Source of the DNA: Polyangiaceae bacterium
GTDB lineage: Bacteria > Myxococcota_A > Polyangia > Polyangiales > Polyangiaceae
NCBI GenBank assembly: GCA_043755175.1
Contig: JAYUUB010000002.1
Location: forward strand, 12,067-76,066
Direction of reading: 5' to 3'
Length of the DNA: 64,000 bases
Below the pieces are notes generated by a model. That model made no database searches, was not told where the DNA came from, and worked only from the letters and a program-made list of their open reading frames with translations. Positions 9,767-59,083 of this stretch are shown here, one piece after another. Each line of letters opens with the position of its first letter. Position 1 is the first letter of the stretch. Made by a program: the position numbers and the translations under genes.

Positions 9767-9954
9767 CCCCTCTCGTTAGCCGACCGACACGGCCTGCGCC
9801 AGCTTTCGACTGAACACACGTCTCGACGGCCCGCAGATGTGCGCTTTTTTTCGGCCTTTTCGGCATGGTCTCAGTTACCCTCGCCGGCCAGACCGCCCGC
9901 TATCCCGTTGGGTGCGCAACGAACCAAGCGTCCAGCTCGGGTCAGCCGTCGACC

Positions 9955-11247
9955 ATGTCGTCCCCTCAGAAGCCGCCCGACCCTTACATTGGACGCGCCG
10001 TTCTCGGCGGTCAGTTCCTCATCGAGCAGAAGATCGGCTCCGGAGGAATGGGCGCGGTCTATCGGGCCTCGCAGCCCGCGATGAACCGACTCGTCGGGGT
10101 GAAGATTCTTCACCCGAAGCTGACGAACCGCAAAGATCTCGCCTCGCGCTTCCGACGCGAAGCGCGTGCGATGAGTCACTTGCAGCACCCGAACACGGTA
10201 CGCGTCTACCTGTACGGCGAGCTCGAAGACGGCTCGCTCTACATCGTGATGGAGTACCTCGAAGGTCGGAACCTGAATCAGAGCGTGCGCAAAGAAGGGC
10301 CTTTTCCCGTCGAGCGCGCGATCCCGATTCTCATCCAGTGCTGTGGCGCCCTCCAAGAAGCGCACTCACAAGGGATCATTCATCGCGATCTGAAGCCCGA
10401 GAACATCTTTCTCTCAACCAACGGCGGGCTAAAAGACTACCCGAAGGTTCTCGACTTCGGCCTCGCCAAGGTGACCGAACGCGAGCTTCGCCCCGGCTCC
10501 GTGATGCTCACCCAAGAGGGGATGGTGTTCGGCACGCCCGAGTTCATGTCACCCGAGCAGGCGCAGGGCAAAGTGCTCGACGCACGCAGCGACATCTACT
10601 CGCTCGCCACGATTCTCTACGAAGTGCTGACTGGCAAGCTGCCTTACGACGCCAAGACGCCGATGGAGTACATCCAGCTCCACGTCACCAAGCCGCCGAT
10701 GTCGCTCGACGATCGGATCCCCGGAAAGAAGTTCCCGGGAGGCCTGGCCGAAGTCATCGCAAAGGCATTGCAAAAGAATCCTGAGAACCGCTACAACTCG
10801 GCTTCCGAATTCGCCGACGCGCTGAAACCCTTCGCGATGGGTCGCACGTTCTCGGCGATCATGCCCGGCGGGTCGCCGGCCTCGCGTTCCATCGATCCGA
10901 CCCAGGTCGACCCGCAGAAGATTCCTGCGCCGGCGCCGAGCTCTGGGCGGAGGCCCGATGGCCCACCCGAGGTCGCGAAGACCATTCGGATGCAGGCTCA
11001 CCCGGCCGCGCTCAATCCGGGTGCCTACGCGCAACCAGGCAGCCATCGACAACCTCCTGCCAGCGGAGCGATGCCGAGCTCGGGGGTGCCGGCGAGCGAT
11101 CCGCGCGCGCCGCTCGGCATTCCTGTTTTGCCGGCCGTCGCCCAAAACCGCTCCGGAGTGAACCCCGTCGTTCTGGGGGTCGTCGCGGTCGTCTGTCTCC
11201 TGGTCGGAATCGCCATCACGCTCCTCGTGATGCGCGTGCTGACCTAG
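9955..11247 (+). CDS. Ser/Thr protein kinase with a C-terminal membrane anchor
   Basis: Canonical Hanks motifs: GSGGMGAVYRA, VGVKIL, HRDLKPENIFL, DFGLAK and SPEQ. A Pro-rich linker is followed by a terminal TM helix (VVLGVVAVVCLLVGIAITLLVM). Start ATG 9955 is preferred over track start 9865. Confidence 0.9.
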   Translation: MSSPQKPPDPYIGRAVLGGQFLIEQKIGSGGMGAVYRASQPAMNRLVGVKILHPKLTNRKDLASRFRREARAMSHLQHPNTVRVYLYGELEDGSLYIVMEYLEGRNLNQSVRKEGPFPVERAIPILIQCCGALQEAHSQGIIHRDLKPENIFLSTNGGLKDYPKVLDFGLAKVTERELRPGSVMLTQEGMVFGTPEFMSPEQAQGKVLDARSDIYSLATILYEVLTGKLPYDAKTPMEYIQLHVTKPPMSLDDRIPGKKFPGGLAEVIAKALQKNPENRYNSASEFADALKPFAMGRTFSAIMPGGSPASRSIDPTQVDPQKIPAPAPSSGRRPDGPPEVAKTIRMQAHPAALNPGAYAQPGSHRQPPASGAMPSSGVPASDPRAPLGIPVLPAVAQNRSGVNPVVLGVVAVVCLLVGIAITLLVMRVLT

Positions 11248-16338: not shown

Positions 16339-17259
16339 TCACTCCTTGATGGCCTCGCTGCCGCCGATGATCTCCATGAGCTCCTTGGTGATCGCAGCTT
16401 GGCGCGCCTTGTTGTAGTCGAGCGTGAGGCCCTCGATCATCTCGGAGGCGTTCTTGGTTGCCGACTCCATCGCGGTCATCTGAGCACCGAAGAACGACGC
16501 CATCGACTCGTAGAGCGCTCGGAGGAGAGAGATGTCGACGTACATCGGCGCGAGCACCTCGAGGATGGCGCGCTGATCGGGCTCGAAGATGAATTGCGAC
16601 GTGTCTTCGACCTCCCCCTCGGGGGGCGGTGGCACGGGCAGGAGTCGTTCGGCGCTCACCTGCTGGGTGAGAGCGCTCTTGAACTCGTTGTAGATGACGT
16701 AGATCGCATCGACCTGGCCCTTGAGGAACGGCTCGAGAACCTTGTCTCCGAGGGCTTTCGCGGTCTCTTGCCCGAGCTTGTCCCAGACTCCCGCGATGTA
16801 CTCGATGGGCGCGCCACGGCGCGTGAGGTAGTCGCGACCTTTTCGGCCGACGACGATCATGCGCACCTCTTGGCCTTCGGCCGTTCGCGTCTTCCACTCG
16901 CGCTCGGCGCGCTTGTTGATGTTCGCGTTGAACGCGCCGCAGAGACCGCGGTCGCTCGTCAGGACGACGAGTAGAACGCGCTTCTCGGGCCTCGCGACAA
17001 GCAGCGGGTGAAGGGTCTCTTCGAGCACCTCCCCCGGCAGCTGCGCCTCGCCCTGCGCGCCGCCTTCGCTCGCGCGAACGAGGCGATTCGTGAGCTCGGC
17101 GAGCACGGTCGTCGTCTTGACTGCGTACGGGCGGAGCTCGGTGATGCGCTGCTGCGCACGGTTCAGCCGTGCACCTGCGACCATCTTCATCGCGCGCGTG
17201 ATCTTCTGCGTCGACTTGACGCTGATGATGCGCTTGCGGATCGTCTTGAGAGAGGGCAC
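16339..17259 (-). CDS. atpG: F-type ATP synthase subunit gamma
   Basis: GTG start. The N-terminus PSLKTIRKRIISVKSTQKITRAMKMVAGARL and the C-terminus QAAITKELMEIIGGSEA are gamma signatures. Confidence 0.95.
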   Translation of the reverse strand: MPSLKTIRKRIISVKSTQKITRAMKMVAGARLNRAQQRITELRPYAVKTTTVLAELTNRLVRASEGGAQGEAQLPGEVLEETLHPLLVARPEKRVLLVVLTSDRGLCGAFNANINKRAEREWKTRTAEGQEVRMIVVGRKGRDYLTRRGAPIEYIAGVWDKLGQETAKALGDKVLEPFLKGQVDAIYVIYNEFKSALTQQVSAERLLPVPPPPEGEVEDTSQFIFEPDQRAILEVLAPMYVDISLLRALYESMASFFGAQMTAMESATKNASEMIEGLTLDYNKARQAAITKELMEIIGGSEAIKE

Positions 17260-17262
17260 GCG

Positions 17263-19017
<1,755 letters not shown>

Positions 19018-19102
19018 CTAACGGTTAGTCAACTGCGACTACACAAGAGTTACAAAACGGGCGGGCGGCTGGAGTCAGCGCGTCGCGAATCAGAGCGCCG
19101 GA

Positions 19103-19645
19103 TCAGGTGGCGGTCGAAGCATCGCGAAGACCCCTGAGGCGGGCCCTCGCGCTGCCGTCGATGACCCGATCGCCGATGCGTGTGACCACGCCGGCGATGA
19201 GGCTCGGATCGACCGAATGGGTGATGGTGACTTTGTTACCGGTCGCTTTCTCGAGCTCGGCTTTGAGGCGGTCGATGTACGTTTCCGTCAGGGGAGCGGC
19301 GCTCGTGACGACGGCGCGAACGACCTTCGCGTCGTGATCGACGAGACGGGCCAAGTGACGCGCGATGTCGGGGAGCGCACGGAGGCGACGGCGATGCGCG
19401 ACGAGCCTCAGCGTGCGCTGAGCCGTGTCGGACGCGCCGAGCTTCGTCGCGATTTCGACCAGAATGGCCTTCTTCGATGCGTCGGGTACGACCGGGCTCT
19501 CGAGCACGTTCTTCAGCTCGGCGCTCTCGGCGTAGGCCGCCGCGAAGTCACCGATCTGGGTCGAGAGCGCGGCGAGGTTGCCCTCTTCTTTTCCGAGATC
19601 GAAGATCGCCTTCGCGTAGCGTCGAGCGATGTTGTCGTAGCTCAC
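19103..19645 (-). CDS. atpH: F-type ATP synthase subunit delta (OSCP)
   Basis: 180 aa. The GTG start overlaps the atpF stop (GTGA at 19642-19645). ARRYAKAIFDLGKE...LIAGVVTRIGDRVIDGS is typical of delta. Confidence 0.9.
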   Translation of the reverse strand: MSYDNIARRYAKAIFDLGKEEGNLAALSTQIGDFAAAYAESAELKNVLESPVVPDASKKAILVEIATKLGASDTAQRTLRLVAHRRRLRALPDIARHLARLVDHDAKVVRAVVTSAAPLTETYIDRLKAELEKATGNKVTITHSVDPSLIAGVVTRIGDRVIDGSARARLRGLRDASTAT

Positions 19646-20688
19646 GAATTGTCTCCCTGAAGGGTTTGCGAAGCCTTCAACGCCGGGCCGATGCCGGTGA
19701 GGTACTCGTCGGCCAAGCGGTCGAGATCGCCCTGCTGTACGCGCTGCTTCACGAGCTCTTCGGCTGCGCGAATCGCGCCGTCGATGGCCTCGCTCAAGAG
19801 ATCGGCCTCGGCCTGCCGCAGCTCTTGGGCGACGCGGAAGGCGGCGTCCTTGCGCATGCGCGCCCGCTTTTCCTCTGCTTCGTCGAGGATGCGCTTCTTC
19901 TCCGCGGCGAACTGCGCGCGGTAGTCGTCTTCGAGCTCGGTCCGGCGCTGCTCGATGTTCGAGAGCTGCTTCTGGTACTTCTTCAGCCGCGCCTCGGCTT
20001 CGTCACGCAGCGTGGCGGCAGCCTCGATGTCTTGCATGATCGCTTTTTTGCGCTTGATGAGTCCGTCGCGGAGCGGCGTCCCTCCAAAGCGGAAGAGTAG
20101 GAGCACGACGATGCCGAAGTTGATGAGGTTCGCGAGGACCGGAGGCTCCTGGTTCTTCGCGTCGCACTCGTCGTTCTCGTTCTTGTAGCGCCAGAGGAGG
20201 CGGTCGAGGCCCGACGGGCTCTCGGCCTTCTCGTTGTTCACCCCGAGGAGGCCTTGGTACCAATTGACATGCGGCGGCGAATCCATCGGGCCGTGGCCGG
20301 GACACTCGTGCTCACCTGCGCCGGCGTGCTCGTGGGCTTCGGCGTGCGGCGCGCCCGGGATCGGGGGATGGCCCGGAGGCATGCCGCCCGGACCACCAGG
20401 GCCCGGCTGCCGAGGGCGCGACGGCTGCGGAAATCCGGGCGGCAGCTGCTGCCCCGGCTGCATCTGGATCGGGCGCGGCTGCACCTGCGACGGCTGGGGC
20501 TGGCCCGGCTGGGGCATCTGCACCGGAGGACGTTGGCCTGGCTGGGGCTGGCCTGGCTGGGGCTGGCCTGGCCGCGGCTGGCCTGGCTGCGGCTGCGGCT
20601 GCGGCTGCGGCTGAGCCGCGCCGACGTTCGCGAGGAGCGCGGCGATGGCGAGCGAGCCAGCGCCGACGAGGCGGGTAACGAGTCTCAC
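19642..20688 (-). CDS. atpF: F-type ATP synthase subunit b with a long N-terminal signal-peptide plus Pro/Gln-rich extension
   Basis: The C-terminal 170 aa are a standard b subunit (TM LANLINFGIVVLLLF, then the coiled coil KKAIMQDIEAAATLRDEAEARLKKYQ...). Before them come MRLVTRLVGAGSLAIAALLANVGAA (signal-like), about 90 aa of PQ/PGQ repeats and a His/Cys-containing segment. The GTG start overlaps the b' stop (GTGA at 20685-20688). Confidence 0.85.
   Translation of the reverse strand: MRLVTRLVGAGSLAIAALLANVGAAQPQPQPQPQPGQPRPGQPQPGQPQPGQRPPVQMPQPGQPQPSQVQPRPIQMQPGQQLPPGFPQPSRPRQPGPGGPGGMPPGHPPIPGAPHAEAHEHAGAGEHECPGHGPMDSPPHVNWYQGLLGVNNEKAESPSGLDRLLWRYKNENDECDAKNQEPPVLANLINFGIVVLLLFRFGGTPLRDGLIKRKKAIMQDIEAAATLRDEAEARLKKYQKQLSNIEQRRTELEDDYRAQFAAEKKRILDEAEEKRARMRKDAAFRVAQELRQAEADLLSEAIDGAIRAAEELVKQRVQQGDLDRLADEYLTGIGPALKASQTLQGDNS
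20534..20611. repeat. coding tandem repeat (15-bp units then 6-bp units) encoding the PQPQ/PGQPQ tract of AtpF
   Basis: TGGCCTGGCTGGGGC-type 15-mers at 20534, 20549, 20564 and 20579, followed by TGCGGC x3 to 20611. Confidence 0.85.
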
Positions 20689-21155
20689 GAGCGCACCTCT
20701 CGGCCGAGCAGCTTGGAAGCGATTTGTTCTGCGAGCGCGGGGCGTGCCGTATCGAGGTCGGCGCGCAACGTCGCGACCTCTTTGGCGATGTTCACGCGAC
20801 CCTCCTCGATGATTCGAGCGCTCTCGGCCTTGGCCTCTTCGAGGATCTGGGTCTCGAGCTTGTTCGTCTCGACTCGGAGCCGATCGCGCTCGACGGTCGC
20901 CGTGTGGCGCGCCTTTTCGATCTCGGTCTCGAAGCGATGGAGCAGCTGGTTCGCTTTTTCATCCATCGACCGCGCATCGGCGCGTGAGCCGTCCGTCCGT
21001 CGCTCTCGTTCCTCGAACAGCTTGAGGAGCGGATCGAAGAGGATCGGCTTCAGAAGGATGCAAAAGAGGGCGAACAGCGCGAGTTGCGCCAAGAACGACA
21101 TGTCGAAGTCGACGTTGACGTCGGCGCCCGAGGCAAAGAGGAGAGGAAGGCTCAT
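20685..21155 (-). CDS. F-type ATP synthase subunit b' (second b-type subunit)
   Basis: I chose start ATG 21155 (MSLPLLFASG...). It has one TM helix (FLAQLALFALFCILL) followed by a charged coiled coil, and sits directly upstream of atpF. Confidence 0.75.
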   Translation of the reverse strand: MSLPLLFASGADVNVDFDMSFLAQLALFALFCILLKPILFDPLLKLFEERERRTDGSRADARSMDEKANQLLHRFETEIEKARHTATVERDRLRVETNKLETQILEEAKAESARIIEEGRVNIAKEVATLRADLDTARPALAEQIASKLLGREVRS

Positions 21156-26737: not shown

Positions 26738-26919
26738 GGGGATTCGGTTTTCGCGAGAGCCGGCTTCTCAAATCAGTCCGCGACCAGGACTCGGTTCTCC
26801 GAGGCTCGGTCGCAGTAGCACGACGTCCGCGTCGATGAGTGGTGAGCCCGCTCTCTTTGCCGGTTCGTTCGTTCGATTGTCGCAGTTCTTTTGGTGCACC
26901 GAGGTTGACCGAGTCCCCC

Positions 26920-28437
26920 ATGACGGTTCGACGAGATCCCGCCCCCGACGCGTTCCTGCTCGCCATCGAGCACACGCGTTCGCTATCGCCTGCCACGTTC
27001 GACCAATGGTTCGCGAGTGTCGCGTTCGACGACCTGACCGACGGCGTACTCACGCTTCGGGTGCAGAACGAGTTCGTCCAAGAGTGGGTGCGTGACAACT
27101 TTCTCCCGACGCTCGCGGGCAAGCTCCGAGAAATCACGGGTCACTCGATACAGATCGCCTGGGTTCTCGATTCGAAGCTCGAGCACCCGATCGCGGTGGG
27201 CGATGCATCGGCGCCGATTCGTCCGCGCGCGCTCGTCAGCCGCCAGCAGGTCGCCATGCCTCCTCCGATGCAGGCCGCGCTCGCGTCGCACGCGTACGGC
27301 TCATCGCCGTCGCTTCCCGGAAACGGCCACGGCGCGTGGTCTGACGACGCCGCCCCGCCCAGCTCGCGCAACCGCGCCGCAGCGCTCCCTGTCGGTGTCG
27401 GACCCATCACCCTCGAAGATCTCAACCCGAAGCAGACCTTCGCAAACTTTGTCGTGGGTCCATCGAATCAGCTCGCCCATGCCGCCGCCATCGCGGCCGC
27501 GGGTGGCGGCGGACGCCGCTACAACCCGCTCTTCATCTGCGGCGGCACGGGTCTCGGCAAGACCCACCTCATGCACGCGATCGCTCACCGGATGCGGAGC
27601 GAACGGCTGACCGCGCGCATCCTCTACATTTCGGCAGAGCGCTTCACGAACGAGTTCATCACGGCGATTCAACATCACAAGATGGATGAGTTCCGAACGC
27701 GGTACCGATCGGCTTGCGACCTTCTCCTCGTCGACGACATCCAGTTTCTCGCAGGTCGCGAGCAGACGCAGGAAGAGTTCTTCCACACGTTCAACGCCCT
27801 GCATGGGCAAGACAAACAAATCGTCGTCACGAGCGACAAGTATCCACAGAACCTCGAGCGAATGGAGGAGCGCCTCGTCTCTCGATTCTCGTGGGGCCTC
27901 GTCGCAGACATTCAGGTTCCCGAGCTCGAGACCCGGGTCGCGATCGTTCGCAACAAGGCCGCCATCGAGGGCATCTCGCTAGAAGACGATGTCGCGTTGT
28001 TCCTCGCCCAGATGATCCGTTCCAACGTGCGTGAGCTCGAAGGGACGCTCATCCGTCTCGCGGCGAAGTCGTCGCTCACCGGGCGCGCCGTCGACATGGC
28101 GTTCGCCAAGAGCGAGCTGGCGGCCACGAGCTCGGCGCGGCCCCAGATGATGAGCGTCGAAGACATCCAGCGCGCCGTCTGTCATCACTTCCACCTCCGC
28201 TCGAGCGAGCTCGTCTCGAAAGACCGACACAAGAGCGTTGCCTTCGCGCGGCACGTCGCGATGTATCTCTGCAAGCAGCGTCTGAAGTGCAGCTTTCCGG
28301 AGCTGGGTCGCGCTTTCGGAAACCGCGACCACACGACGGTCATGAGCGCGGTGCGAAAGATCGAAGCGCAACGCGACACCGATCCCGAGGTGAGAGCTCA
28401 TCTCGAAGCGCTCGAGCGAAAGCTCGCCGACGGCTGA
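26920..28437 (+). CDS. dnaA: chromosomal replication initiator DnaA
   Basis: N-terminal domain I (FDQWFASVAFDDLTDGVLTLRVQNEFVQEWVRDNF), AAA+ motifs (NPLFICGGTGLGKTHL, LLVDDIQFL) and the C-terminal DNA-binding helix (VAFARHVAMYLCK...LGRAFGNRDHTTVMSA). ATG 26920 is preferred over track start 26839. Confidence 0.97.
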   Translation: MTVRRDPAPDAFLLAIEHTRSLSPATFDQWFASVAFDDLTDGVLTLRVQNEFVQEWVRDNFLPTLAGKLREITGHSIQIAWVLDSKLEHPIAVGDASAPIRPRALVSRQQVAMPPPMQAALASHAYGSSPSLPGNGHGAWSDDAAPPSSRNRAAALPVGVGPITLEDLNPKQTFANFVVGPSNQLAHAAAIAAAGGGGRRYNPLFICGGTGLGKTHLMHAIAHRMRSERLTARILYISAERFTNEFITAIQHHKMDEFRTRYRSACDLLLVDDIQFLAGREQTQEEFFHTFNALHGQDKQIVVTSDKYPQNLERMEERLVSRFSWGLVADIQVPELETRVAIVRNKAAIEGISLEDDVALFLAQMIRSNVRELEGTLIRLAAKSSLTGRAVDMAFAKSELAATSSARPQMMSVEDIQRAVCHHFHLRSSELVSKDRHKSVAFARHVAMYLCKQRLKCSFPELGRAFGNRDHTTVMSAVRKIEAQRDTDPEVRAHLEALERKLADG

Positions 28438-34339: not shown

Positions 34340-35050
34340 TCAACGGTTGCCCTTCACCACGTTCATGAGCGCAGAGAAGTCGTCGAGCGATGCCTTCGGG
34401 ATGTTGAGCGAGAAGCGTGATCGGAAGGGGCCTTCCGAGACGGTCCCTTGGTAGACGATGGGCGTCTGCCCTTTGTTGGGCAGGCCCTGGAACAGCTTTT
34501 CCATTTTCCCGCTCACGTCGAGCATGTCGTCTTCGCTGCCGCCGCCGCTGCCTCGAATGAAGAACACCGCCGCAAGCGCTCGAAAGCTTCCGAGCGTCAT
34601 GAACCCGCCCGATGCGACCTTGAGCGACTTGAGGCTTTGGGCGTCTGCGCGACCGTCGACGGTCTTGTCTTTCGGCGCACCGCTCTTGACCCCGAGCAGG
34701 CGCTCGACGAGCTCTTCGCGGTTTCCACCGAACGCGACCCAAGAGCTGTCTCCGTCGGCCATCACCAAAATGTAGAAGGTGACCGAGGCCGGAGCTTTGT
34801 CGCTCTTCGCGTCTTTGGCGTCTTTCTTCGGATCGCGTTTCGCGTCGGGCCTCTTGTCGTGCTTCTTTCCAAAGACGACGCCGATGTCCATTTCGAAGGC
34901 GCCCTTGCCGAGCTTCGCGGGCGGCGCCGGAGTCTTCACGGTCGGAACCACGTCGCTCAGGGCTTTCTTCAGCTCCTTCTGCATGCCGGGCTGGGCGTAC
35001 GCGCCGGCCGCGTCTTTCAGCCACTTCGCGACAGCATCAGCCTTCTGATT
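34340..35050 (-). CDS. C-terminal segment of the interrupted lipoprotein gene (or an independent ORF from ATG 34984)
   Basis: It is in the same frame as 35051-36307. The 22 codons between the TAG at 35053-35051 and ATG 34984 keep coding-like composition (17/22 G/C at third positions by my count). Confidence 0.5.
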   Translation of the reverse strand, partial: NQKADAVAKWLKDAAGAYAQPGMQKELKKALSDVVPTVKTPAPPAKLGKGAFEMDIGVVFGKKHDKRPDAKRDPKKDAKDAKSDKAPASVTFYILVMADGDSSWVAFGGNREELVERLLGVKSGAPKDKTVDGRADAQSLKSLKVASGGFMTLGSFRALAAVFFIRGSGGGSEDDMLDVSGKMEKLFQGLPNKGQTPIVYQGTVSEGPFRSRFSLNIPKASLDDFSALMNVVKGNR

Positions 35051-36307
35051 CTAGCCGATGAGGTTCCAACCCATCTGCGTGTCGAAGATGGCCCCGATCT
35101 TCTCGGACGCCGATTTCGGCGTCGAGGGCTTGGAGATCATGCGGTTACCGGTCGCCGAGACGATCTGTTCGCCCTTCAGCAGCGGGAAATCGAGCAGAGC
35201 GCTCAGCTTCTTGCGCTCGGCCTCGCTGCCGACCTTCAGCTTCGCGAGCCCCCCTTCGATGAGGTCTTTGCCGACACGCAGCATCGGGGCGTAGTCGTTC
35301 GGGTTGACGATTCTTCCGAAGGTGACCGAGTCGGCGTCGGCCGGCGCTTGGAAGAAGAGAGCTGGAAACGGTCCGCTCATGGCTGCTGCGGTTTCGCGCG
35401 CGATCCACGACGTCTTGCTCTTGTAGTCGACCGCGCCCTCGACGTTCACGCCTCCTTGCGGCGAGAGCGTCACGTTGAAGCTCACCTTGTCGACGTCGGC
35501 GAAGAGCGCGATGGCTTCGTCGGTGAGGCCGCGTGCGCCGGCCTCGATGGCTCGGTCGAACTGCGGCTCGCCGATCCCGAGCTCGCTTCGCGCGAGACGG
35601 GGCGCTTGTGGCGCGAGCTTGGCGAGGTCGGCTCCGAATCGCGCGTTGAGCGGCGACACCAACAGCTCGAGGGTGACGTCGCTCGCAGGCGAGGCTTGAG
35701 TCGAGAGGGTGCGTGTGAGGTAGCCGCCGAGCGCTTGAACGTCACGCTCGGACGGACCGCAGACCGCCCGCGCAGGTACCGGGCCCGACGCGACCGCGAC
35801 GACGCAGAAGGCCTTCGCGCGCTCTCCTCCGAACGCCCACATTCCGGGCGCGAGCTCGCGCGTCGCACCGAGCGCGATCTTGGCCTCGTCGAGCGACTTG
35901 AGCCCCACGGCGACCGCCATCATCGGCTCGGGGGGGCCATCGGTGGGCATGGCAGCCACGAAGTCGACCGGTGCGTCGAGCGCGACGACCGACGCGGCCT
36001 TCGAGGCGTCGACGTCGAGTCGAAGCCCACCGCGACCGGTGAGCTCTCGGAGTGTCGCCGTCGTCAGATCGCTCTGGGCGCCGCCGAAGCCGAGGGTCGC
36101 GATCGTCGCGGTCAGGCTTTTCGCACGGCCCGTGGCAAAAACGCCGGTGGGGGCGGGGACAGGGGAGAGATCGAACGCGGGAGCGGCGACCGCTGTCGCG
36201 GTGACGGCCGGCTTGGGTGCCGCCTGCTCGACGCGCGGAGGAGCAGAAGAACAGGCCGCGGTCGCCAGGATGACGGATAGCGAGATGAGGCGAAAAGTCG
36301 TTCGCAT
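35051..36307 (-). CDS. hypothetical lipoprotein, N-terminal segment ending at an in-frame TAG
   Basis: Start ATG 36307 (MRTTFRLISLSVILATAAC, lipobox). The ORF terminates at TAG 35053-35051, and the downstream ORF continues in frame. Confidence 0.6.
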   Translation of the reverse strand: MRTTFRLISLSVILATAACSSAPPRVEQAAPKPAVTATAVAAPAFDLSPVPAPTGVFATGRAKSLTATIATLGFGGAQSDLTTATLRELTGRGGLRLDVDASKAASVVALDAPVDFVAAMPTDGPPEPMMAVAVGLKSLDEAKIALGATRELAPGMWAFGGERAKAFCVVAVASGPVPARAVCGPSERDVQALGGYLTRTLSTQASPASDVTLELLVSPLNARFGADLAKLAPQAPRLARSELGIGEPQFDRAIEAGARGLTDEAIALFADVDKVSFNVTLSPQGGVNVEGAVDYKSKTSWIARETAAAMSGPFPALFFQAPADADSVTFGRIVNPNDYAPMLRVGKDLIEGGLAKLKVGSEAERKKLSALLDFPLLKGEQIVSATGNRMISKPSTPKSASEKIGAIFDTQMGWNLIG

Positions 36308-36381: not shown

Positions 36382-36957
36382 TCAGCCGCCCTTTCTGGCG
36401 ATGAACGGCACGATGCGATCGACGAACGCCTGTTTGTGGAAGCGGTCGAACTCGGACCAAGTCGTCAGCGTTCGAGGGTCTTTCACTCGGTCGAGAAACA
36501 CGATCCCGTCGAGGTGGTCGGTCTCGTGCTGAAAGGTCCCGGCCGTGAGACCGGTCACTTTTCGACGCTCTTCGTTTCCGTGTCGATCCCAGCTCGTGAC
36601 CTCGAGATCGGCGAACCGCTCGACCACGCCGCGAAGGTTGGGGACGCTGAGGCAGCCTTCGTAGTTCTCGAAGGTCTCGTCACCGACGGCCGTCAAAACC
36701 GGGTTGACCAAAATGGTCAGTGGCACATTCGGTTTGTAAGGGTAACGGGGATTGTCCTTCACTTCGATTGCACAAACCCGAACCGGCATGTGCACCTGCG
36801 GCGCCGCGAGGCCGGCTCCGTTCGCATCGCGCATGGTCTCGACGAGATCGTCGATGAAGGTTTGCATCGCGCCAGACGCGAGCTCTTCGCGCGTCACTTC
36901 GCGCGAGCGCTGACGGAGCACGGGGTGACCGAGTTGGGCGATCTCGAGGAGTGTCAC
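36382..36957 (-). CDS. def: peptide deformylase
   Basis: Motifs GAGLAAPQV, EGCLSVP and QHETDHLDG. The GTG start at 36957 overlaps the upstream stop (GTGA). The track ORF extends to 37293 but its N-terminus is Arg-rich junk. Confidence 0.9.
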   Translation of the reverse strand: MTLLEIAQLGHPVLRQRSREVTREELASGAMQTFIDDLVETMRDANGAGLAAPQVHMPVRVCAIEVKDNPRYPYKPNVPLTILVNPVLTAVGDETFENYEGCLSVPNLRGVVERFADLEVTSWDRHGNEERRKVTGLTAGTFQHETDHLDGIVFLDRVKDPRTLTTWSEFDRFHKQAFVDRIVPFIARKGG

Positions 36958-39137
36958 CCGCGACAAGGTAGCAGAGCGTCGGGCTCGTGCGCGCTCACGG
37001 CCCGCCCCTCGAATGCGGCGTCGAGAGCCGCGACGCGCGTCGGACCGTCGGGATCGAGCTTGGGGGTGAGATCGCGGATCATCGGATCGGAGGGGCCGAC
37101 GAACGCTCGAGGGATCGCCGCGAGGAGCAGAGCGAGAATGAAGAGCGGTCCGGCCCAAAGGAGGTCGTTTCGCCGCAGGTCGGGGAGAACGCCTCCGAAG
37201 GGCTCGAGATACTTGCTGGAACGCCAGGCGCGCGGTTGTGCGCCGAACACGACGCGCGCGGTGCGCGCTGCAGCGGCCACCGAAAGGAGCCAACCGAGCG
37301 TCCCGAGACCGGTCAGCCAGGGGTTGCGTCCGAGCGAGCCGAGCAGTCCGACCAGAGGCCCGATGACCCCCGGAAAGATGGGCGCTGCGAGCCCAATCGT
37401 GCCGAGCACCAGCGCCGCCGACAAGACTGGCGCGCTTCTACCGAGCCCCGACAAGCGCTCCAAATCGTGCGTTCCGACGTGAACCACCGCCATCTTCGTG
37501 GCGACGTAGAACAAGGACGCCACGACTGCGTGGGCGCTCACGAGACCGATGGCAGACTCGATGCCGTGTGGCGTCAGCGAGAACGCGAGAAGCAGAATGA
37601 GCCCACCGCGGGCCACCGCCAGGTGGGCTCCGAGTCGCACGATGTCACGCTCGACCAGCGCCCACGCCCCGCCGACCACGAGCAACGCGACGCCGATTGC
37701 TGGCAGGCTCTCTGCGCCCCACCGCGCCCCGTCGAGCTCGATCGAGAGACAGAGTCGCAAGATCGAGTAGCCCGAGAGCGCCGGAAGGAGCGCCCCGACG
37801 AGCACGGTCTTCGCCGGTGAAGATTCGGCGCCCTCGGAGGGGCTCCCGAGATCTTTGAGCCAGCCGTGAACGGGAACCAGTGGAAGAAACGCGGCGCACC
37901 CCAGGAACGAGAGGAGCCACGCCGCGCGATATCCGGGCAGGCCGATCATCGGTAGGAGATCGTTCACGAAGTGGGCGCGCGCAAGATCGGGAAAGGCATA
38001 GACCGCGGCGGCTTCGGAGCCATCGACGAGGTAGCAACCCCCCGTGTGGGTCGACATCCACCGAACGGCGACTGCGAGCGAGACGGTCGACGAGATGCCC
38101 ACGATGGCGAGCTTCGCGCTGGCCTTCTTCGACGAGTCCCAGGTGAGGTAGACCGCGCCGGCGATCGTGAATGCCCAACCGAGGAGGAGAAGCAGGCTCG
38201 TCTGCGCGACGAGGACGAGCACCGCTCCGCTCACGACGATCGCTGCGCCACCAATGGCTCGTCGCGCTCCGCCGAGGCGCGTGTCGGTCGTCAGGATCGC
38301 TGTGAGCCCGACGACCGTCGCCGCGAGCAACGCGGCGATCGAGAGCCCGTCGACCCCGAGGAACAGCTCGAGGCCGTTCCGACCGTCGAGGACCGAGCGC
38401 TCGATGAACTGGAGGCCGTCGTTGCCGTCGCGTTTTCCGAGCTCGCGATCGAAGCTCGCGAAGAGCCACGTGGCGAGGGCGCACTCGATGAACATGATCG
38501 CGCCGGCCGCGATTCGAAGGGTGCGATCGCCCAAAGACCGGACGAAACGCGATGAAAACGCGAGGAGTGCCACCAAGAACGGAATCATGACCAGGAGTGA
38601 GAGTGCGTGTCGCGCGAGCCCGAGGCGGCGTTGCGCGACGACCCCGATGAGCTTGGGCGCGTCGACCACCTTCGCGTCGGGTTGGGCTGCGTCGGAGTCG
38701 ACGACGAGCTCGGCGTAGAGCTCGCTCGCTCTCACGTCGGCCGAGTGCCACGTCACGAAGTACTTCCGCGATTGTCCTGGAGCGATCGACGAACGCGTGC
38801 CGCCTTCGGGCTGTGCGACGAGACCGCTCGGGCTGCGCGGATCGTCGTCGGCATCGAGAACGTAGACCCGATTGATCGTCAGAGGTCCCGGTCCGGAGTT
38901 GCGGACCTCGAACGCGCCAGTGTAGTCGCCGCCCTCACCGCGAAGGAGCCTCACGGGTTCGCCGATCGGGCTACGGACCTCGAGCTGGCCGCGCGGGCCC
39001 TTCGGGGGAACCGAGACCCGCTTCTCGACTTTGAAGCGCTCGGCCCCCATGTGCGCATGGGCGACGACGGGCGAGGCGACGAAGGCCATCAAGACGGCGA
39101 TGACGAAGAAAAGCGCACGCATGCCATTGTGCTTCAT
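36954..39137 (-). CDS. polytopic membrane protein: N-terminal secreted beta-rich domain plus a degenerate NuoM/ND4-like antiporter-type domain
   Basis: Signal peptide (ALFFVIAVLMAFVASPVVAHA) and an approx. 150-aa Ig-like segment (AFEVRNSGPGPLTINRVYV...IAPGQSRKYFVTW). By-eye NuoM-like blocks follow: LFLGVDGLSIAALLAATVVGL, LLLGWAFTIAG, LPLVPVHGWLKDLG and ERDIVRLGAHLAVARGG. Confidence 0.55.
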   Translation of the reverse strand: MKHNGMRALFFVIAVLMAFVASPVVAHAHMGAERFKVEKRVSVPPKGPRGQLEVRSPIGEPVRLLRGEGGDYTGAFEVRNSGPGPLTINRVYVLDADDDPRSPSGLVAQPEGGTRSSIAPGQSRKYFVTWHSADVRASELYAELVVDSDAAQPDAKVVDAPKLIGVVAQRRLGLARHALSLLVMIPFLVALLAFSSRFVRSLGDRTLRIAAGAIMFIECALATWLFASFDRELGKRDGNDGLQFIERSVLDGRNGLELFLGVDGLSIAALLAATVVGLTAILTTDTRLGGARRAIGGAAIVVSGAVLVLVAQTSLLLLLGWAFTIAGAVYLTWDSSKKASAKLAIVGISSTVSLAVAVRWMSTHTGGCYLVDGSEAAAVYAFPDLARAHFVNDLLPMIGLPGYRAAWLLSFLGCAAFLPLVPVHGWLKDLGSPSEGAESSPAKTVLVGALLPALSGYSILRLCLSIELDGARWGAESLPAIGVALLVVGGAWALVERDIVRLGAHLAVARGGLILLLAFSLTPHGIESAIGLVSAHAVVASLFYVATKMAVVHVGTHDLERLSGLGRSAPVLSAALVLGTIGLAAPIFPGVIGPLVGLLGSLGRNPWLTGLGTLGWLLSVAAAARTARVVFGAQPRAWRSSKYLEPFGGVLPDLRRNDLLWAGPLFILALLLAAIPRAFVGPSDPMIRDLTPKLDPDGPTRVAALDAAFEGRAVSAHEPDALLPCRG

Positions 39138-41455
39138 GCGTCGTCCTTCGGAGATGCGCTCGATCGTGACGCGAGCCGTGCGAGCAAGTCGAGTGGCGCG
39201 TCGAGGAGTTGCTCGAGCCCCAGGATCAACCGCGCGAGACTTCCAGGCGATCCGTCGTCTCGCACGCGGTTCTCACGCGGAGTCTTCGCTTCGCAGAACC
39301 ACTCGAGAGCACCGCGCCTGTCGCGTGCTGCCCAGTCGGCGGGCCTGCCCGACGAGTAGCGAGCGCGCGCCAGATGCCCGGCGATCGCAGCCGGAATCGC
39401 GAGCGCCGCAAACACGAGCACGCGCGCCGTGGTCGTTTGGCCGACGGGTTGTTCGAGCACGCCGAGCATGACGCCGACCAACGGGCCTGCGACGCACGCC
39501 GCGGTGGCGATCGCCGAGGCGGTTCGATCGGTCGGGGCCGACGAGCCCGGGGCCGCGAGGCTCGCGCCTCGAGCGCGCTGTGAGTCGGTCGAGCTCTTCT
39601 TGGCGCGTCCCTGGCCTTCGGCCGCGCTCTGCTTCGCCGTATTCTTGCCGGCCTGCGGAGTCGCAGCCAGTGGAGATTCGGTGAGATCGGTGGGAGATGC
39701 GACTGCATGCGAGACGCAAAAGTAAGCGCGATACACGGCGTGAGCGAGGGCTGCCCAAGCCGCCGCGGCGAGGAGCGCGATCGCCACACCGAGGGCGCCG
39801 CCACGCGCGAGAGCTGCGGCACCGATGGCTCCGACGCCGACGAAGACGCCGACAAAAGGAACGGGAGAGCCAGCTAGCGCCAAGACGGCGATCGCGAGCG
39901 ACGTTCCCTCGCCTACGCGAGAGCCTTCACCGAGGCCAGCGCCGATCTCGATCTGCGCGAGGGGCTCGAGCTCGTCGACGTCGTTGGTCGCACGTTCGAG
40001 AACGATCCCGATCGCCACGAGTGAAAACGCGGCGGCTACCGCGAGTGACATCGCACCGGCGGAAGCCGAAGAAGCGCTCGCGGCCAAGACGAGCGCGACG
40101 ACGGTGCGCGACGATTCGGCGACGAAGGTCGTGCTACGAAACGCACGGGCCGATCGCAGCGCAGCGAAGAGCGCGACGCCGAGAGCTAGCAGGGTCACCA
40201 CGCCCCCGAGGCTCGGGCTCGCAGCGAAGATCCCCGAGAGGCGTCCGCCGATGACCGCCGCGAGGATGGAGGTAAAGCCACCAGCGAACCCGACGACGCG
40301 CGGATCGTCGGTCATCGCTCCCGTGCGCCGCTCCCGCGCGGAGGAGCCGCCGAGCGCCATCACGAGCCCGAGACCTGCGAGCCCGAACGCGATGCAGGCG
40401 CCGTCGACGATGCGAAACGATCCGAGCTGCCTCTCGGCGAACGTGCTCGCGCTCGCATCGAGCTGACGGTCGATCTCGCGGAAGGTGATCGATGGACCCA
40501 CCGCTCGGACTTCGACCTCTTCGTTTGGCGGAAAGCGTACTTGCTGGATGAGCGCGATGTCCCTGGAATCGCCGCCGAGAATGGTGCCTCCGCCGGGGTC
40601 GATCGTCACCTTCTGAAGGCCGGCGGGAAGCTCGGCACGAACGAACGGCGCTATGGCGAACGGCTCGGTCCTCGGAGTGAGCTGCGAGTCGTTGGCGAGA
40701 CCGAGGTACACCTTCGCGCCCGGTCGTGTGAGCACCGTCAGGTAGCTCTTGTCGCCCACCTTCGGCGGGTGAACTCCGGCGACGTCTTTGGTCGCCGACT
40801 CGGTGGGCTCTTTGGAGCTCGCCTCGAACGGAGCTCGGTAGTCGGAAAGATATCGACGCCCGTCGAGGTAGCGCCCGCCCAACCCCCAGAACACCAACCC
40901 TGAACCGAGCGCGAGCATCAGCGCACCCGCGGTGATCGTACCCAAGGCTCGAGCGCCGGCCCGGGGCGATGTCGCACCGACGAGCACGGCGACGACGATT
41001 CCGAAGGCGGTCCAACCCGTGAGCAGGGTCGCGAATCCGTCGCCGAGCACCGACACCAGGAGCGCCGAGACCGCAAGGCCGATGCCCGCCTGTGAGGCCG
41101 GCGTGCGTCTGCGGAGCGAGGGAGTGAGCACCGAAAAGAGCCCGAGCACGAGGAGAGCGAACGCGAGCACCGCGCTCTTCGTGTCGAGCCAGAAGCCGAG
41201 GTTTGCGTCGAGCGATCCCACGCGCGCGAGGCGGAGCGCATGTGAAAACACGCGTTGGCCCGACAAGAGCGGTCGGCCGGCGATCGCCAGCGCGGCCATC
41301 GCAGCCACGATCGACGCTCCGACGACGCGGGCCGCGTTGGGGCCAGCCGTCTTCGACATGCCTGCGCCGCGCGCCGTGACGAGGCTCGCGAGTGCACCGA
41401 GCGCGACGAGCAGAGGGACCAGATAGAGCGGAATGGAGCTCAGGACCACGTTCAT
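39134..41455 (-). CDS. polytopic membrane protein: degenerate NuoL/ND5-like N-terminal region with an inserted PEGA-like soluble domain
   Basis: ATG 41455 overlaps the sigma-factor stop (ATGA). By-eye NuoL-like blocks are LGFWLDTKSAVLAFALLVLGLFSV and LLTGWTAFGIVVAVLVG (canonical GWEGVG). A soluble insert of about 150 aa carries SYLTVLTRPGAKVYLG...LTP...ELPAGLQKVTI. Further Ala/Gly-rich TM helices follow. Confidence 0.5.
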   Translation of the reverse strand: MNVVLSSIPLYLVPLLVALGALASLVTARGAGMSKTAGPNAARVVGASIVAAMAALAIAGRPLLSGQRVFSHALRLARVGSLDANLGFWLDTKSAVLAFALLVLGLFSVLTPSLRRRTPASQAGIGLAVSALLVSVLGDGFATLLTGWTAFGIVVAVLVGATSPRAGARALGTITAGALMLALGSGLVFWGLGGRYLDGRRYLSDYRAPFEASSKEPTESATKDVAGVHPPKVGDKSYLTVLTRPGAKVYLGLANDSQLTPRTEPFAIAPFVRAELPAGLQKVTIDPGGGTILGGDSRDIALIQQVRFPPNEEVEVRAVGPSITFREIDRQLDASASTFAERQLGSFRIVDGACIAFGLAGLGLVMALGGSSARERRTGAMTDDPRVVGFAGGFTSILAAVIGGRLSGIFAASPSLGGVVTLLALGVALFAALRSARAFRSTTFVAESSRTVVALVLAASASSASAGAMSLAVAAAFSLVAIGIVLERATNDVDELEPLAQIEIGAGLGEGSRVGEGTSLAIAVLALAGSPVPFVGVFVGVGAIGAAALARGGALGVAIALLAAAAWAALAHAVYRAYFCVSHAVASPTDLTESPLAATPQAGKNTAKQSAAEGQGRAKKSSTDSQRARGASLAAPGSSAPTDRTASAIATAACVAGPLVGVMLGVLEQPVGQTTTARVLVFAALAIPAAIAGHLARARYSSGRPADWAARDRRGALEWFCEAKTPRENRVRDDGSPGSLARLILGLEQLLDAPLDLLARLASRSSASPKDDA

Positions 41456-42138
41456 GCGAGCGACTTTTTCTCCATCTCCGCGCTTGAGGCTCGTGGCTCG
41501 TTCGCTTGGTCGGTCGGTGTCGAGCTCTCGCTTCGTTGTGCGCCGCCCCCCCATCCCCGGTCGGTGAGGCAACTCCGAAGCGCGTGGATCGCGCGAGCGG
41601 CTCGGGATTTGATCGTTCCGAGGGGCACGCCGTCCCGCTCTGCCATCTCCGGGTACGACAGCCCTTCGAAGAAAGCGATGATCAACGTGTCACGCTGCGC
41701 CTTCGGTAGAATATTCATCGCATCGCGCACGGCTTTGCGTTCGCGCTCGAGCGTGAGGCGCGTCTCGGGATCGTCGACGGCGATGCCGAGCGCCTCGACC
41801 TCTGGTCGAAGATCGTTGTCGGCGATTTGGGCGCGGCGGGTGCGCCTGCGCGTTCGATCGAGCGAGAGGTTGCGAACGGTGGTGAGGAGCCAGGCGGCGA
41901 CGGTGCCGCGCTCGGCCTGGTACTGATGCGCGCGCTCGACGACGGCCATGAACGCGTCGTGAACGATGTCTTCGGCCTCTTCGGCGTCACGGACGATCTT
42001 CAGCGCGAGCCCGAGCGCCGTCTTGGCATACCGATCGTACAGGTCTCCGACCGCCGTGGCGTCACCGCTACGAAGCCTCTCGAGCGCAGCGATGTCGGCA
42101 TCGTCTCGCTCAGCCCTGTTGTCGTCCCCAAGGACCAT
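41452..42138 (-). CDS. ECF-type RNA polymerase sigma-70 family factor
   Basis: Region 2 (DAEEAEDIVHDAFMAV...AWLLTTVRNLSLDRTRRR) and region 4 (LPKAQRDTLIIAFFEGLSYPEMAERDGVPLGTIKSRAARAIHALR). Start ATG 42138 is preferred. Confidence 0.9.
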   Translation of the reverse strand: MVLGDDNRAERDDADIAALERLRSGDATAVGDLYDRYAKTALGLALKIVRDAEEAEDIVHDAFMAVVERAHQYQAERGTVAAWLLTTVRNLSLDRTRRRTRRAQIADNDLRPEVEALGIAVDDPETRLTLERERKAVRDAMNILPKAQRDTLIIAFFEGLSYPEMAERDGVPLGTIKSRAARAIHALRSCLTDRGWGGGAQRSESSTPTDQANEPRASSAEMEKKSLA

Positions 42139-42220
42139 GGTCGGTCTGCCCCCGTGGCGCTCACACCACAAGGTCGCGGGTTATGCCGGGTTTCCTGGTC
42201 GGCGGCTAGCCCCGCGGGCT

Positions 42221-43015
42221 TTACGCATCGGGGGTCGTGCTCGTTTCGGTCATCGGCGCGACGAGAGCTTGCGGTTCCGACGGACCGTCGGTCGGGACGA
42301 CGCCGATCGCGCTCTTTCTGAGAGCGCGCCACACGGCGCCTCTTCCGTCACCCGTCACGGCCGAATAGCCGATGACGCCGCGGCCTACGTCTCTCTTCAA
42401 CCGGTCGAGCACCAACCGCTCTTGAGACCGCGGGACTTTGTCGAGCTTGGTCGCCACGAGCACCACCGAGAGCGGTCTCAGAGTCCGCTCGCGCGGAGCC
42501 AGGGCGAACTCGACCAGCTCGAGATCGTCTTCCTCGAGACCGCGGCGCGCATCGAAGAGAACCACGATCGTCGCCAAGGACGCACGTGTTCGAAGGTAGC
42601 CCTCGATGAGCTCTGCCCACTGCTTGCGCTCGTCTTTCGAACGTTTGGCGAAGCCGTAGCCCGGAAGATCGGCGAGGACCAAAGCGAGTCCGTCTCTCGC
42701 GCGAATTTCGAACAGATTCACCTGCCGCGTACATCCGGGGGTCGAGCTCGTTCGCACGAGCCCGCGTCGCTCGACGAGCGAGTTGATCAGGCTCGATTTG
42801 CCGACGTTCGAGCGGCCACAAAAAGCGATCTCGGTGTAGGTGGGCGGCGGCAGCGAGCCTCCACCGATGCCGACCGCAGCGATGAACTTGGCGTCGACGA
42901 TTTGCAGTCCTTCCTCGCCGACGACGATGGGCGTCGAGGCGCCGGGCTTCGCTCCTCCGCCACCCGACTGTGGGGCCGCCGTCTTCTTGGGGTGGTTGTG
43001 CTTCGCAGCGCTCAC
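42221..43015 (-). CDS. engB: ribosome-biogenesis GTPase EngB/YihA
   Basis: G1 GRSNVGKSSLINSL, G3 DLPGYG and G4 ATKLDK. The GTG start at 43015 overlaps the upstream stop (GTGA). It has basic/Gly-rich N-terminal and extra C-terminal extensions. Confidence 0.85.
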   Translation of the reverse strand: MSAAKHNHPKKTAAPQSGGGGAKPGASTPIVVGEEGLQIVDAKFIAAVGIGGGSLPPPTYTEIAFCGRSNVGKSSLINSLVERRGLVRTSSTPGCTRQVNLFEIRARDGLALVLADLPGYGFAKRSKDERKQWAELIEGYLRTRASLATIVVLFDARRGLEEDDLELVEFALAPRERTLRPLSVVLVATKLDKVPRSQERLVLDRLKRDVGRGVIGYSAVTGDGRGAVWRALRKSAIGVVPTDGPSEPQALVAPMTETSTTPDA

Positions 43016-43374
43016 TTGATCTCCTCTTCGGCGCGGGCCGTGACCTCGAAGTGAGGCTTGCAGCGTTCGCACTGACAGAGCGCTCGCAGATACCTGAACG
43101 AGTAGATACCCGTCGAATGGCTGTCGCCCCACGCGAAAGAGAGGCCGTAGTTTCCGACGCGCTCGATCTGGCGAAGCTCGAGAGGCAGCGAGCCCGTGAC
43201 GTCGACACGACGGATCGTCCCGCCGTGACCCTGGCAATGGGCGCATGGGCAGTAGCCGCGGAGGACATCGTGCGGCAGCACCGAGTGATGTCCGTCTGCC
43301 CAGGTGATCTCCATGACCATCGCACCGTGCGGGGCCTTGACGCCGGTGGGCGTGATGCTCGGCTCGTTCGCCAT
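43012..43374 (-). CDS. DUF971-family small protein (gamma-butyrobetaine-hydroxylase-like N-terminal domain)
   Basis: 120 aa with ITWADGHHSVLPHDVLRGYCPCAHCQGH...FAWGDSHSTGIYSFRYLRALC, the DUF971 pattern. Confidence 0.7.
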   Translation of the reverse strand: MANEPSITPTGVKAPHGAMVMEITWADGHHSVLPHDVLRGYCPCAHCQGHGGTIRRVDVTGSLPLELRQIERVGNYGLSFAWGDSHSTGIYSFRYLRALCQCERCKPHFEVTARAEEEIK

Positions 43375-58094: not shown

Positions 58095-58943
58095 TTAGCA
58101 GGCGATTGCGGCATCGATGGCTTTCGCGAACGCGCGGGCCGTCTGCCATCGTCGATCGCGGCGCTTCTCGAGAGCGCGCGCGACGACCTCTGCCAGCGCG
58201 GGTCCGACGTCGGCGACCAGATCGAGTCGCGGCGGCGTGCGATCGAGATGCGCTTCCATGACGTGCGCGCGATCGCCCCCGACGAAGGGAGGTCGACCCG
58301 TGATGGCTTCGAAGAGGAGCACCCCGGCCGAGTAGACGTCGGTGCGTGGGTCGACGCGCTCGCCGAGAATGAGCTCGGGTGAAAGGTACGCCGGGCTCAG
58401 CTGCGAGGCAGCGCTCTCGGGAAGCGGCGTGGAGACGTCGTCGATTTTGGCTGAGCCGAGATCGAGCACGATGGCCCGCGTCGAGCTACGCGATTCGCGT
58501 TCTCCGTGGCCGATGAAGAGGTTCGAAGGCGTGAGGTCGCGGTGAATCACACCGACGCGATGCGCGGCGTCGAGGCCTCGCAGGGTGTCGCTCACGAAAG
58601 AGGCAGCGCGCCCGGGAGAGATTCTTCCGGTCGTGAACAGGTGCTCGCGCAGCGTGCATCCGACGAGGAGCGGCATGACGATGCACGGCATTCCGCTCGG
58701 CGTGCGCTGCAGCTTCAAGAGAGGGACCACGTTCTCGTGACGAATGCGCGCGAGCGCCGCCGCCTCGAGGAGGAATCGTACGCGGACGGTCGGATCGTCG
58801 GAGAGCGGCACCTTCAGCGCGAAACGACGACGCTCTGGCGTCACGGCTTCGAAGACCGTCGAGGTCATGCCGCCCCCTATTCGGCGCACGACTTTGTACG
58901 CGCACGCCTCGAGATCCATCGTCTCATCCACGCTCGACAGCAT
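58095..58943 (-). CDS. stand-alone Ser/Thr-kinase-domain protein with atypical catalytic motifs
   Basis: GGGMTSTVFEA, ALKVP, HRDLTPSNLF (Thr replaces the Lys of HRDLKPxN), DLGSAK (instead of DFG) and SPELILGERVDPRTDVYSAGVLLFE. There are no additional domains. Confidence 0.8.
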   Translation of the reverse strand: MLSSVDETMDLEACAYKVVRRIGGGMTSTVFEAVTPERRRFALKVPLSDDPTVRVRFLLEAAALARIRHENVVPLLKLQRTPSGMPCIVMPLLVGCTLREHLFTTGRISPGRAASFVSDTLRGLDAAHRVGVIHRDLTPSNLFIGHGERESRSSTRAIVLDLGSAKIDDVSTPLPESAASQLSPAYLSPELILGERVDPRTDVYSAGVLLFEAITGRPPFVGGDRAHVMEAHLDRTPPRLDLVADVGPALAEVVARALEKRRDRRWQTARAFAKAIDAAIAC

Positions 58944-59083
58944 TGGGCACCTCCGAGCGCGAGGCCGTGCCGGGCTCTCCATCGCTCCAAAGGTTGTCGG
59001 CGTGAGCGAGCGCGAGTTGCGTCGCGTGTCTCACATGGTCGACCGCTGTCGGACGGAACCCGCCCGTCGAGCAACGCGTCGGG

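Follow-up and report, generated by a model that had tools for sequence, protein, structure and literature searches.

This analysis concerns a four-gene operon on the minus strand of a 64-kb stretch of contig JAYUUB010000002.1 from a Polyangiaceae bacterium; the whole stretch is referred to as the window, and coordinates are window positions. The operon begins with a gene for a group 4 extracytoplasmic function (ECF) sigma factor of 228 aa (41452-42138; Pfam Sigma70_r2, r4_2, and Sigma70_ECF). It continues with the genes of two membrane proteins, named here A (39134-41455) and B (36954-39137), and ends with def, which encodes a peptide deformylase of 191 aa (36382-36957). A preliminary description of the locus had proposed that the four genes are joined by start/stop overlaps and that A and B comprise about 773 and 727 residues. 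Both statements are correct: the stop codon of the sigma gene overlaps the start codon of A within an ATGA at 41452-41455, that of A overlaps the B start within a second ATGA at 39134-39137, the stop codon of B (TGA) overlaps the def start within a GTGA at 36954-36957, and the two proteins are 773 and 727 aa long. The deformylase assignment is based on matches to PF01327 (Pep_deformylase; 157 bits) and NF001159 (155 bits against a cutoff of 125 bits) and on the catalytic motifs GAGLAAPQ, EGCLS, and HETDH in the translation. Proteins A and B are polytopic, catalytically dead derivatives of the complex I subunits NuoL/ND5 and NuoM/ND4, respectively, and are maintained by selection. For comparison, we collected related loci (L001-L048) by a scan of one genome per species with a 7-sequence alignment as query, by a metagenome scan, which contributed just three loci, and by contig look-ups, and mapped them by tblastn. 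The degenerate homologues are designated A' and B', or L' and M' with regard to their ancestry.

Protein B matches PF00361 (Proton_antipo_M) with 64.4 bits, which passes the cutoff of 21.5 bits, and aligns with the whole TIGR01972 (NuoM) profile with 124.7 bits, which is under the cutoff of 263.8 bits. It is below the cutoff of all NuoM equivalog models, and its top sequence match is PDB entry 6tjv, a cyanobacterial NDH-1MS. The AlphaFold model of B, with a predicted local distance difference test (pLDDT) score of 81, exhibits a fold of 14 transmembrane helices (TMs) with two inverted 5-TM repeats and matches NuoM/ND4/NdhD chains in Foldseek with E=1e-21, template modelling scores of 0.84-0.90, and a root-mean-square deviation of about 3 Å. 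The protein starts with a signal peptide and an N-terminal beta-sandwich (residues 1-170; 38628-39137), which is predicted to be periplasmic from the model and the topology of homologues and whose strands are modelled at residues 52-169. In the eight degenerate loci compared, this beta domain is 42% conserved versus 35% for the TM core. All its profile matches (DUF4232, CARDB, DUF1573) are sub-threshold.

With regard to protein A, no match was found in Pfam, PF00662 and PF00361 included. A weak match to the N-terminal part of NuoL (E=0.0055) was observed, as well as a TIGR01974 score of 15.6 bits against a cutoff of 407.5 bits. The family is rare, with eight word-indexed relatives including the NuoL of Sorangium cellulosum (863 aa, 33% identity, E=4e-47), and the sequence homology of A to NuoL is visible only via this Sorangium intermediate. 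The structural model, which was built on an 8-sequence alignment that includes one intact NuoL, has a predicted template modelling score (pTM) of 0.73; its top 50 Foldseek matches are all NuoL/ND5/NdhF chains, with E values to 1e-11 and target-normalised template modelling scores of 0.6-0.69. The N-terminus of A is directly the TM1 helix, facing the periplasm, and A thus has no cytoplasmic N-terminal domain. Between TM6 and TM7, A carries a beta-rich insert (about residues 199-345; 40421-40861), which is periplasmic by NuoL topology and is a low-confidence region of the model. Across the eight degenerate loci compared, no other part of A' is as well conserved as this insert, whose mean pairwise identity is 44%. 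It has no match in Pfam and occurs in only 73 of 1.84 billion representative clusters. In nearly all of these it lies at the same site of an L-like protein, and about 60 of the 73 clusters contain none of the four NuoL motifs. At its other end, A retains about 25 residues of the lateral-helix region before it ends; the rest of the lateral helix and TM16 are gone. The cytoplasmic C-terminal tail (39137-39283), which ends in an amphipathic helix modelled at residues 739-766, aligns with the start of the lateral-helix (HL) region of Sorangium NuoL, of which it is a remnant. This tail and a lysine-rich loop (residues 586-640) are both cytoplasmic according to the topology of NuoL.

Intact relatives of the two proteins are present in Sorangium, whose L, M, and N proteins pass the NCBIfam cutoffs (616 versus 556 bits for NuoL, 564 versus 264 bits for NuoM, and 381 versus 333 bits for NuoN). 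Every canonical motif is retained both in Sorangium L (GWEGVG, GKSAQIPLHVWLPDA, LIHAAT, THAFFK, and GFWSKD) and in Sorangium M (FWEV, AIKIP..HTWLPDAH, LLKMG, NHG, and FWGE). In A, the TM5 Glu of the GWEG motif, the TM7 Lys, the TM8 His, the TM11 His/Lys, and the TM12 Lys are all replaced or deleted. In B, the TM5 E is replaced by A, the TM7 K by F, the TM8 K by A, and the TM12 E by P, which leaves the TM7 His and the TM11 His as the only retained motif residues, the former being kept in most relatives. The presence of the key residues is an all-or-none character: they are kept in 22 of the 22 intact loci and lost (E/K/H/K/E) in every degenerate locus. The likeness of A and B to NuoL and NuoM, which had been proposed by eye, is thus confirmed by sequence (for A, via Sorangium NuoL) and by predicted fold. 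The loss of the TM5 glutamate, also proposed for both proteins, is confirmed as well and extends to the Lys, His, and Glu residues of TM7, TM8, TM11, and TM12. The same description had reported extracytoplasmic beta-rich domains gained by both proteins. The domains are indeed present in A and B, but they were not gained with degeneration, since intact Sorangium NuoL has the same TM6-TM7 beta insert as A and intact Sorangium NuoM has the same signal peptide and beta domain as B. The suggestion that they might be PEGA domains received no support from Pfam profiles. As A and B lack the defining residues and the complete lateral helix, they should not be filed as NuoL and NuoM.

These data bear on two functional explanations. 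The first is that A and B still belong to a respiratory complex I whose remaining genes (nuoN and nuoA-K) are located elsewhere; in this complex, which would operate with a reduced proton stoichiometry, they would have a structural role without pumping. Such a role would be consistent with the very well preserved NuoM-like fold of B and with the Sorangium ancestors, which pass the NuoL, NuoM, and NuoN cutoffs and are always detached from nuoA-K. However, nuoN is absent from every degenerate locus, and the parts of L that clamp M and N in complex I, the lateral helix and TM16, are shortened or lost, which makes this explanation very unlikely. The second is that A and B are active transporters using other residues or another substrate. 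The TM architecture is kept, and so is the TM7 His of B in most relatives, but different relatives have different residues at the former key positions, either small or hydrophobic (A, V, I, T, S, F, L, and P), which indicates that these positions are no longer constrained. In addition, TM7-13 is the least conserved membrane part of A' (25%), the C-terminal half being 23-26% conserved. A transport activity of this kind is therefore scarcely probable.

The history of the operon can be followed at its chromosomal site. The genes for a DUF971 (GBBH-like_N) protein and an EngB/YsxC-type GTPase, which are the upstream neighbours of the operon (42221-43374, minus strand; assigned by Pfam and synteny), mark a syntenic site in all Polyangiaceae loci examined (L001-L048). 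A and B descend from a detached nuoL-nuoM(-nuoN) set located 3' of DUF971-engB throughout the Polyangiaceae. In Sorangium (about 20 complete genomes), this site comprises intact L-M-N genes and no sigma gene. In four Polyangiaceae metagenome-assembled genomes (MAGs; L021, L028, L029, and L038), a sigma ortholog with 60-64% identity precedes intact L-M-N genes, from which it is separated by a promoter-bearing gap of 210-290 bp. In twelve distinct loci (the window, L001, L005, L006, L027/L048, L032, L034, L035, L036, L045, and L047), the sigma gene is followed by dead L'-M' genes, as far as the contig reaches. The spacing in these loci is -4 to +59 bp between sigma and L' and -4 to +2 bp between L' and M'; the 4-bp overlap between sigma and A is present in the window, L001, L005, L006, and L045, the gap being at most 59 bp in the other loci. 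The gene def comes next in seven of them but is lacking in L005 and also in L046, so that it belongs to the cluster frequently but not always.

Further arrangements are observed. In Polyangium jinanense (L039, 10001-15482), the sigma gene is followed by a PAS-STAS gene on the opposite strand and by a gene for a fused dead L'-M' protein of 1279 aa. The PAS-STAS protein of this cultured species has an anti-sigma-antagonist-like domain. Four loci have neither L nor M: three encode the sigma factor together with a soluble helical protein of 129 aa (L040, L042, and L043), and one encodes the sigma factor alone (L041). The gene for the 129-aa protein (L040, 10594-10983; L042, 9603-9992; L043, 981-1370) overlaps the sigma gene by 4 bp. 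For L040 and L042, the protein was found to have no family match and no relative in the window or the other loci; it could be an alternative partner of the sigma factor. In L046 (3917-8839), engB is directly followed by dead L'-M' genes with no sigma gene between them, which shows that the pair can be kept without the sigma factor at the same site. Finally, a non-syntenic second type of cluster (L008, 153-5639; L044, 5325-12463) comprises a degenerate NuoH-like gene and dead L'-M' genes with no linked sigma gene. Its NuoH-like protein, of 540 or 645 aa, carries an inserted PDZ domain, and the L008 cluster adjoins an ATP synthase operon. The joint occurrence of sigma, A, B, and def across genomes, which had been put forward as a check, therefore holds for the sigma-A'-B' arrangement in twelve loci, but def is inconstant and the partners are separable.

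The 5' regions of the intact nuoL genes share a promoter-like TTGACC-N18-TAACGT element, a GCGCG...CGCGC palindrome, and a GC-rich hairpin leader (L002, 5300-5583; L021, 8953-9168; L028, 9521-9814; L029, 9581-9814; L038, 993-1262; also in L012, L018, and L023). All three elements are conserved with or without a sigma gene, and the palindrome may be an operator.

As the series of locus states ends with loci that have no L or M at all, A and B could be regarded as functionless, decaying relics whose frames stay open by chance in a GC-rich genome. This is extremely improbable. In the closest degenerate pair (L034/L035), for which the synonymous divergence (dS) is about 0.7, the ratio of nonsynonymous to synonymous substitution rates (dN/dS) is 0.15 for A', 0.08 for B', 0.14 for def, and 0.06 for sigma, and the A and B frames are intact across relatives that are just 36-59% identical. 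The dead L' and M' genes are thus under purifying selection, which is strongest in the periplasmic domains. The dN/dS values of 0.08-0.15 led us to reject the pseudogene explanation. In view of these values, of the conserved periplasmic domains, and of the approximately 60 diverse dead-form clusters in public data, the dead form is a sizeable, diverse, and selectively maintained family. The designation of A and B as repurposed pseudo-antiporters, which had been advanced as a hypothesis, is therefore strongly supported by the NuoL and NuoM folds, the lost proton-path residues, and the purifying selection. Since the proton-path residues are lost and the genes are nevertheless kept by selection, an energy-converting pair probably took on a new membrane role.

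The question is then whether this role concerns the sigma factor. The latter is a two-domain ECF sigma factor with Sigma70_r2 and r4_2 and without region 3 (Pfam). It scores 92.8 bits with TIGR02937 (cutoff 42.9 bits), and its best NCBIfam matches, PRK12519 and a SigK-type model, are each under cutoff. All its close relatives belong to the Polyangiaceae. In all aligned orthologs, region 2 is preceded by about 20 conserved residues (R-A/S-E-R-D-x-x-D) that form an N-terminal extension. The C-terminus is short, with a conserved GWG/GWA tail and a 3-aa linker insert in the window, L001, L005, and L006, which are the loci of the ortholog alignment with the 4-bp sigma-A overlap; L045, with the same overlap, is outside the alignment. 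The sigma factor is 60-80% conserved across every locus state, including lineages without L and M, and is an older resident of the DUF971-engB site. Upstream of its gene, a promoter-like element read off the sequence, TAGCCG-N17-CATAAC (42180-42208, minus strand), is kept in the window, L006, and L001 with the same 17-nt spacing. This element looks like a housekeeping promoter and not like an ECF-type promoter. When an autoregulated ECF-type promoter (GGAAC ... CGT) was sought 5' of sigma, the conserved elements fitted only the housekeeping-like -35/-10 pair, and a generic promoter/terminator scan of the operon gave nothing beyond chance level.

The dead L'-M' pair could act as a membrane receptor or anti-sigma factor, which would sequester the sigma factor and release it on an envelope or proton-motive-force signal. 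The gene of A is placed where an anti-sigma gene canonically lies and overlaps the sigma gene by 4 bp, an arrangement that is conserved in a dozen divergent loci. The absence of a recognisable anti-sigma domain next to the sigma gene, noted earlier by eye, was verified: none was found in A, B, or the neighbour genes by Pfam, NCBIfam, and solved-structure searches, zf-HC2 and RskA included, so that no protein with an anti-sigma domain is encoded nearby. A small anti-sigma open reading frame was also sought in the sigma-to-L gaps of loci of the L021/L028/L029/L038 type, with no convincing result. Furthermore, the sigma factor lacks a C-terminal regulatory domain and has an apparently constitutive promoter, for which reason post-translational control would be expected. 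Precedents can be cited as well, since a polytopic anti-sigma factor without a classical domain exists in myxobacteria, namely CarR, with six TMs and coupled to carQ (PMC8156234), and an ECF group catalogued with proton-conducting membrane transporters, ECF229, has been described (PMC7826278).

Nevertheless, we consider a sigma/anti-sigma relationship unlikely. The same sigma ortholog is found beside intact, separately promoted nuoLMN genes, with the 129-aa soluble protein, or alone, and L'-M' pairs occur without the sigma gene in L046, L008, and L044. Within A, the N-terminal TM helix faces the periplasm and leaves no cytoplasmic N-terminal domain, so that the cytoplasmic segments would be the only possible places for sigma binding, yet these are the least conserved parts of the protein: the basic loop of A' consists of 55% gaps across relatives, and the tail is 23% conserved, compared with 60-80% for the sigma factor. 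With respect to the features of class I anti-sigma factors, A occupies the immediately downstream, co-transcribed-type position, but neither A nor B has the N-terminal domain. The earlier proposal of a sensing module that controls the ECF sigma factor is thus supported by gene position only and is weakened by the persistence of the sigma factor and of L'/M' each without the other.

We favour the reading, to which we give an even chance, that A and B form a non-pumping L-M membrane pair that presents periplasmic beta domains and is co-expressed with the sigma factor. In Sorangium and some MAGs, the set is intact, with its own promoter, a beta insert in L, and a beta-sandwich before M. In the lineage of the window, nuoN has been lost, the proton-path residues are replaced, and the lateral helix of L is shortened. 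The separate promoter region of L-M has given way to start/stop overlaps with the gene of the resident ECF sigma factor; this compaction into a single operon would have followed when the need for a respiratory promoter under independent regulation had ceased. By comparison with complex I, A and B would be adjacent in the inner membrane, like L and M. The two proteins probably no longer move ions and may function as a scaffold or binding module, anchored in the membrane and showing two beta domains to the periplasm. Translational coupling would keep A and B in fixed proportion to the sigma factor and usually also to def. The link with the sigma factor would accordingly be one of co-expression, resulting from old synteny and operon compaction, and not an obligate sigma/anti-sigma partnership. 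The fact that the operon usually feeds def too, together with the housekeeping-like promoter of sigma, argues for steady expression.

Several points weigh against this non-pumping, co-expressed pair. In 12 of the 12 sigma-A'-B' loci, sigma and A are closely joined, at a distance of -4 to +59 bp, compared with 210-290 bp before intact L; operon fusion thus correlates with degeneration. Protein A fills exactly the slot usually occupied by an anti-sigma factor, and profile searches for another regulator of the sigma factor in the vicinity made none visible. Moreover, a scaffold is a weak mechanism, and the pairing of A with B is drawn from the analogy with complex I.

With regard to its surroundings, the operon lies in a housekeeping region, the window also containing grpE-dnaK, PBP1, atpG/atpA, dnaA, an RNase R-like gene, and PEPCK. 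Genes of the ATP synthase (atpG, atpA, and one that is b-subunit-like) and dnaA, at 16339-20958 and 26839-28437, are located 10-25 kb from the operon, which places its locus in a housekeeping region containing dnaA. The broad synteny with Sorangium reaches accA and a TM2-domain gene. The window was searched for further nuo or mrp genes with N-like and H-like queries in tblastn and with Pfam on about 40 predicted genes, which cover most of those predicted, and none was found; the reported absence of NuoA/H/J/K/N or MrpC-G partners from the window is therefore upheld. Rfam and tRNA scans of the window gave no matches. A conserved lipoprotein-like gene of 655 aa (34340-36307) is split by an in-frame TAG at 35051-35053 on the minus strand. 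At this position, the independent assembly L003 exhibits TCG (Ser), its sole difference from the window over 17,409 nt, and the orthologs have Ser or Thr; the TAG is thus a genuine nonsense variant or else an error of sequencing. The window also encodes a 1303-aa protein in which a Ser/Thr kinase is joined to an AAA_16 (STAND-like) ATPase (3472-7383) and two more Ser/Thr kinases (9814-11247 and 58095-59030). Multiple Ser/Thr kinases are typical of myxobacteria.

To our knowledge, the antiporter-like subunits of complex I have been regarded as obligate ion-translocating modules, and our literature search on Sorangium nuoL and on pseudo-antiporters did not return any description of an L/M pair that is catalytically dead yet maintained by selection. 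A single chromosomal site here provides a natural series, from intact to sigma-linked intact, to dead and fused, and to lost, which can be used to trace the repurposing of an energy-converting membrane protein. The locus also raises the question of the role of the periplasmic beta domains on NuoL and NuoM of the Sorangium type. If the pair did regulate the sigma factor, it would represent a new anti-sigma architecture, in which a pumping module of complex I has been turned into a sensor of the envelope or membrane state. As cultured Polyangium species carry the sigma gene near a fused dead L'-M' gene, experiments are feasible.

Among known systems, the detached nuoL-M-N set of Sorangium shares with A and B its ancestry, chromosomal site, fold, L beta insert, and M beta domain. 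A and B differ from it by the loss of the proton-path residues, of nuoN, and of TM16, by the short lateral helix, and by the lack of a separate promoter, their genes being fused to the sigma gene. The NdhD3/NdhF3-CupA module of NDH-1MS is likewise an alternative L/M-type pair encoded off the core, with an extra soluble domain or protein, but NdhD3 and NdhF3, which attach to the NDH-1 core, have retained the catalytic residues, whereas A and B have lost theirs and have no N-type neighbour. Transceptors, such as UhpC and yeast Snf3/Rgt2, are transporter-derived receptors with demonstrated signalling partners. Like A and B, they kept a transporter fold when transport was lost or reduced, perhaps for a role in signalling, but the scaffold of A and B is a pair of complex I subunits.

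With regard to ECF sigma factors, the preliminary description knew of no ECF group with this set of partners. A loosely similar association has in fact been catalogued, as ECF229, a group reported to be 100% Spirochaetes, is associated with proton-conducting membrane transporters (2021, PMC7826278). Compared by description, ECF229 resembles the operon of the window in having an ECF sigma gene genomically near PF00361-type membrane proteins. The taxonomy and the anti-sigma factor differ, however, since ECF229 belongs to another phylum and has a separate putative anti-sigma factor; the transporters of this group have not been described as degenerate. In Myxococcus xanthus, the six-TM DUF1109 anti-sigma factor CarR binds the ECF sigma factor CarQ, to which it is translationally coupled (PMC8156234). 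Both this system and the present operon couple a myxobacterial ECF sigma factor to a multi-pass protein without a zinc-binding anti-sigma domain. In contrast to CarR, A and B are 14-16-TM derivatives of NuoL and NuoM and have no DUF1109 match. If A and B did act on the sigma factor, CarQ-CarR would be their closest functional analogy.

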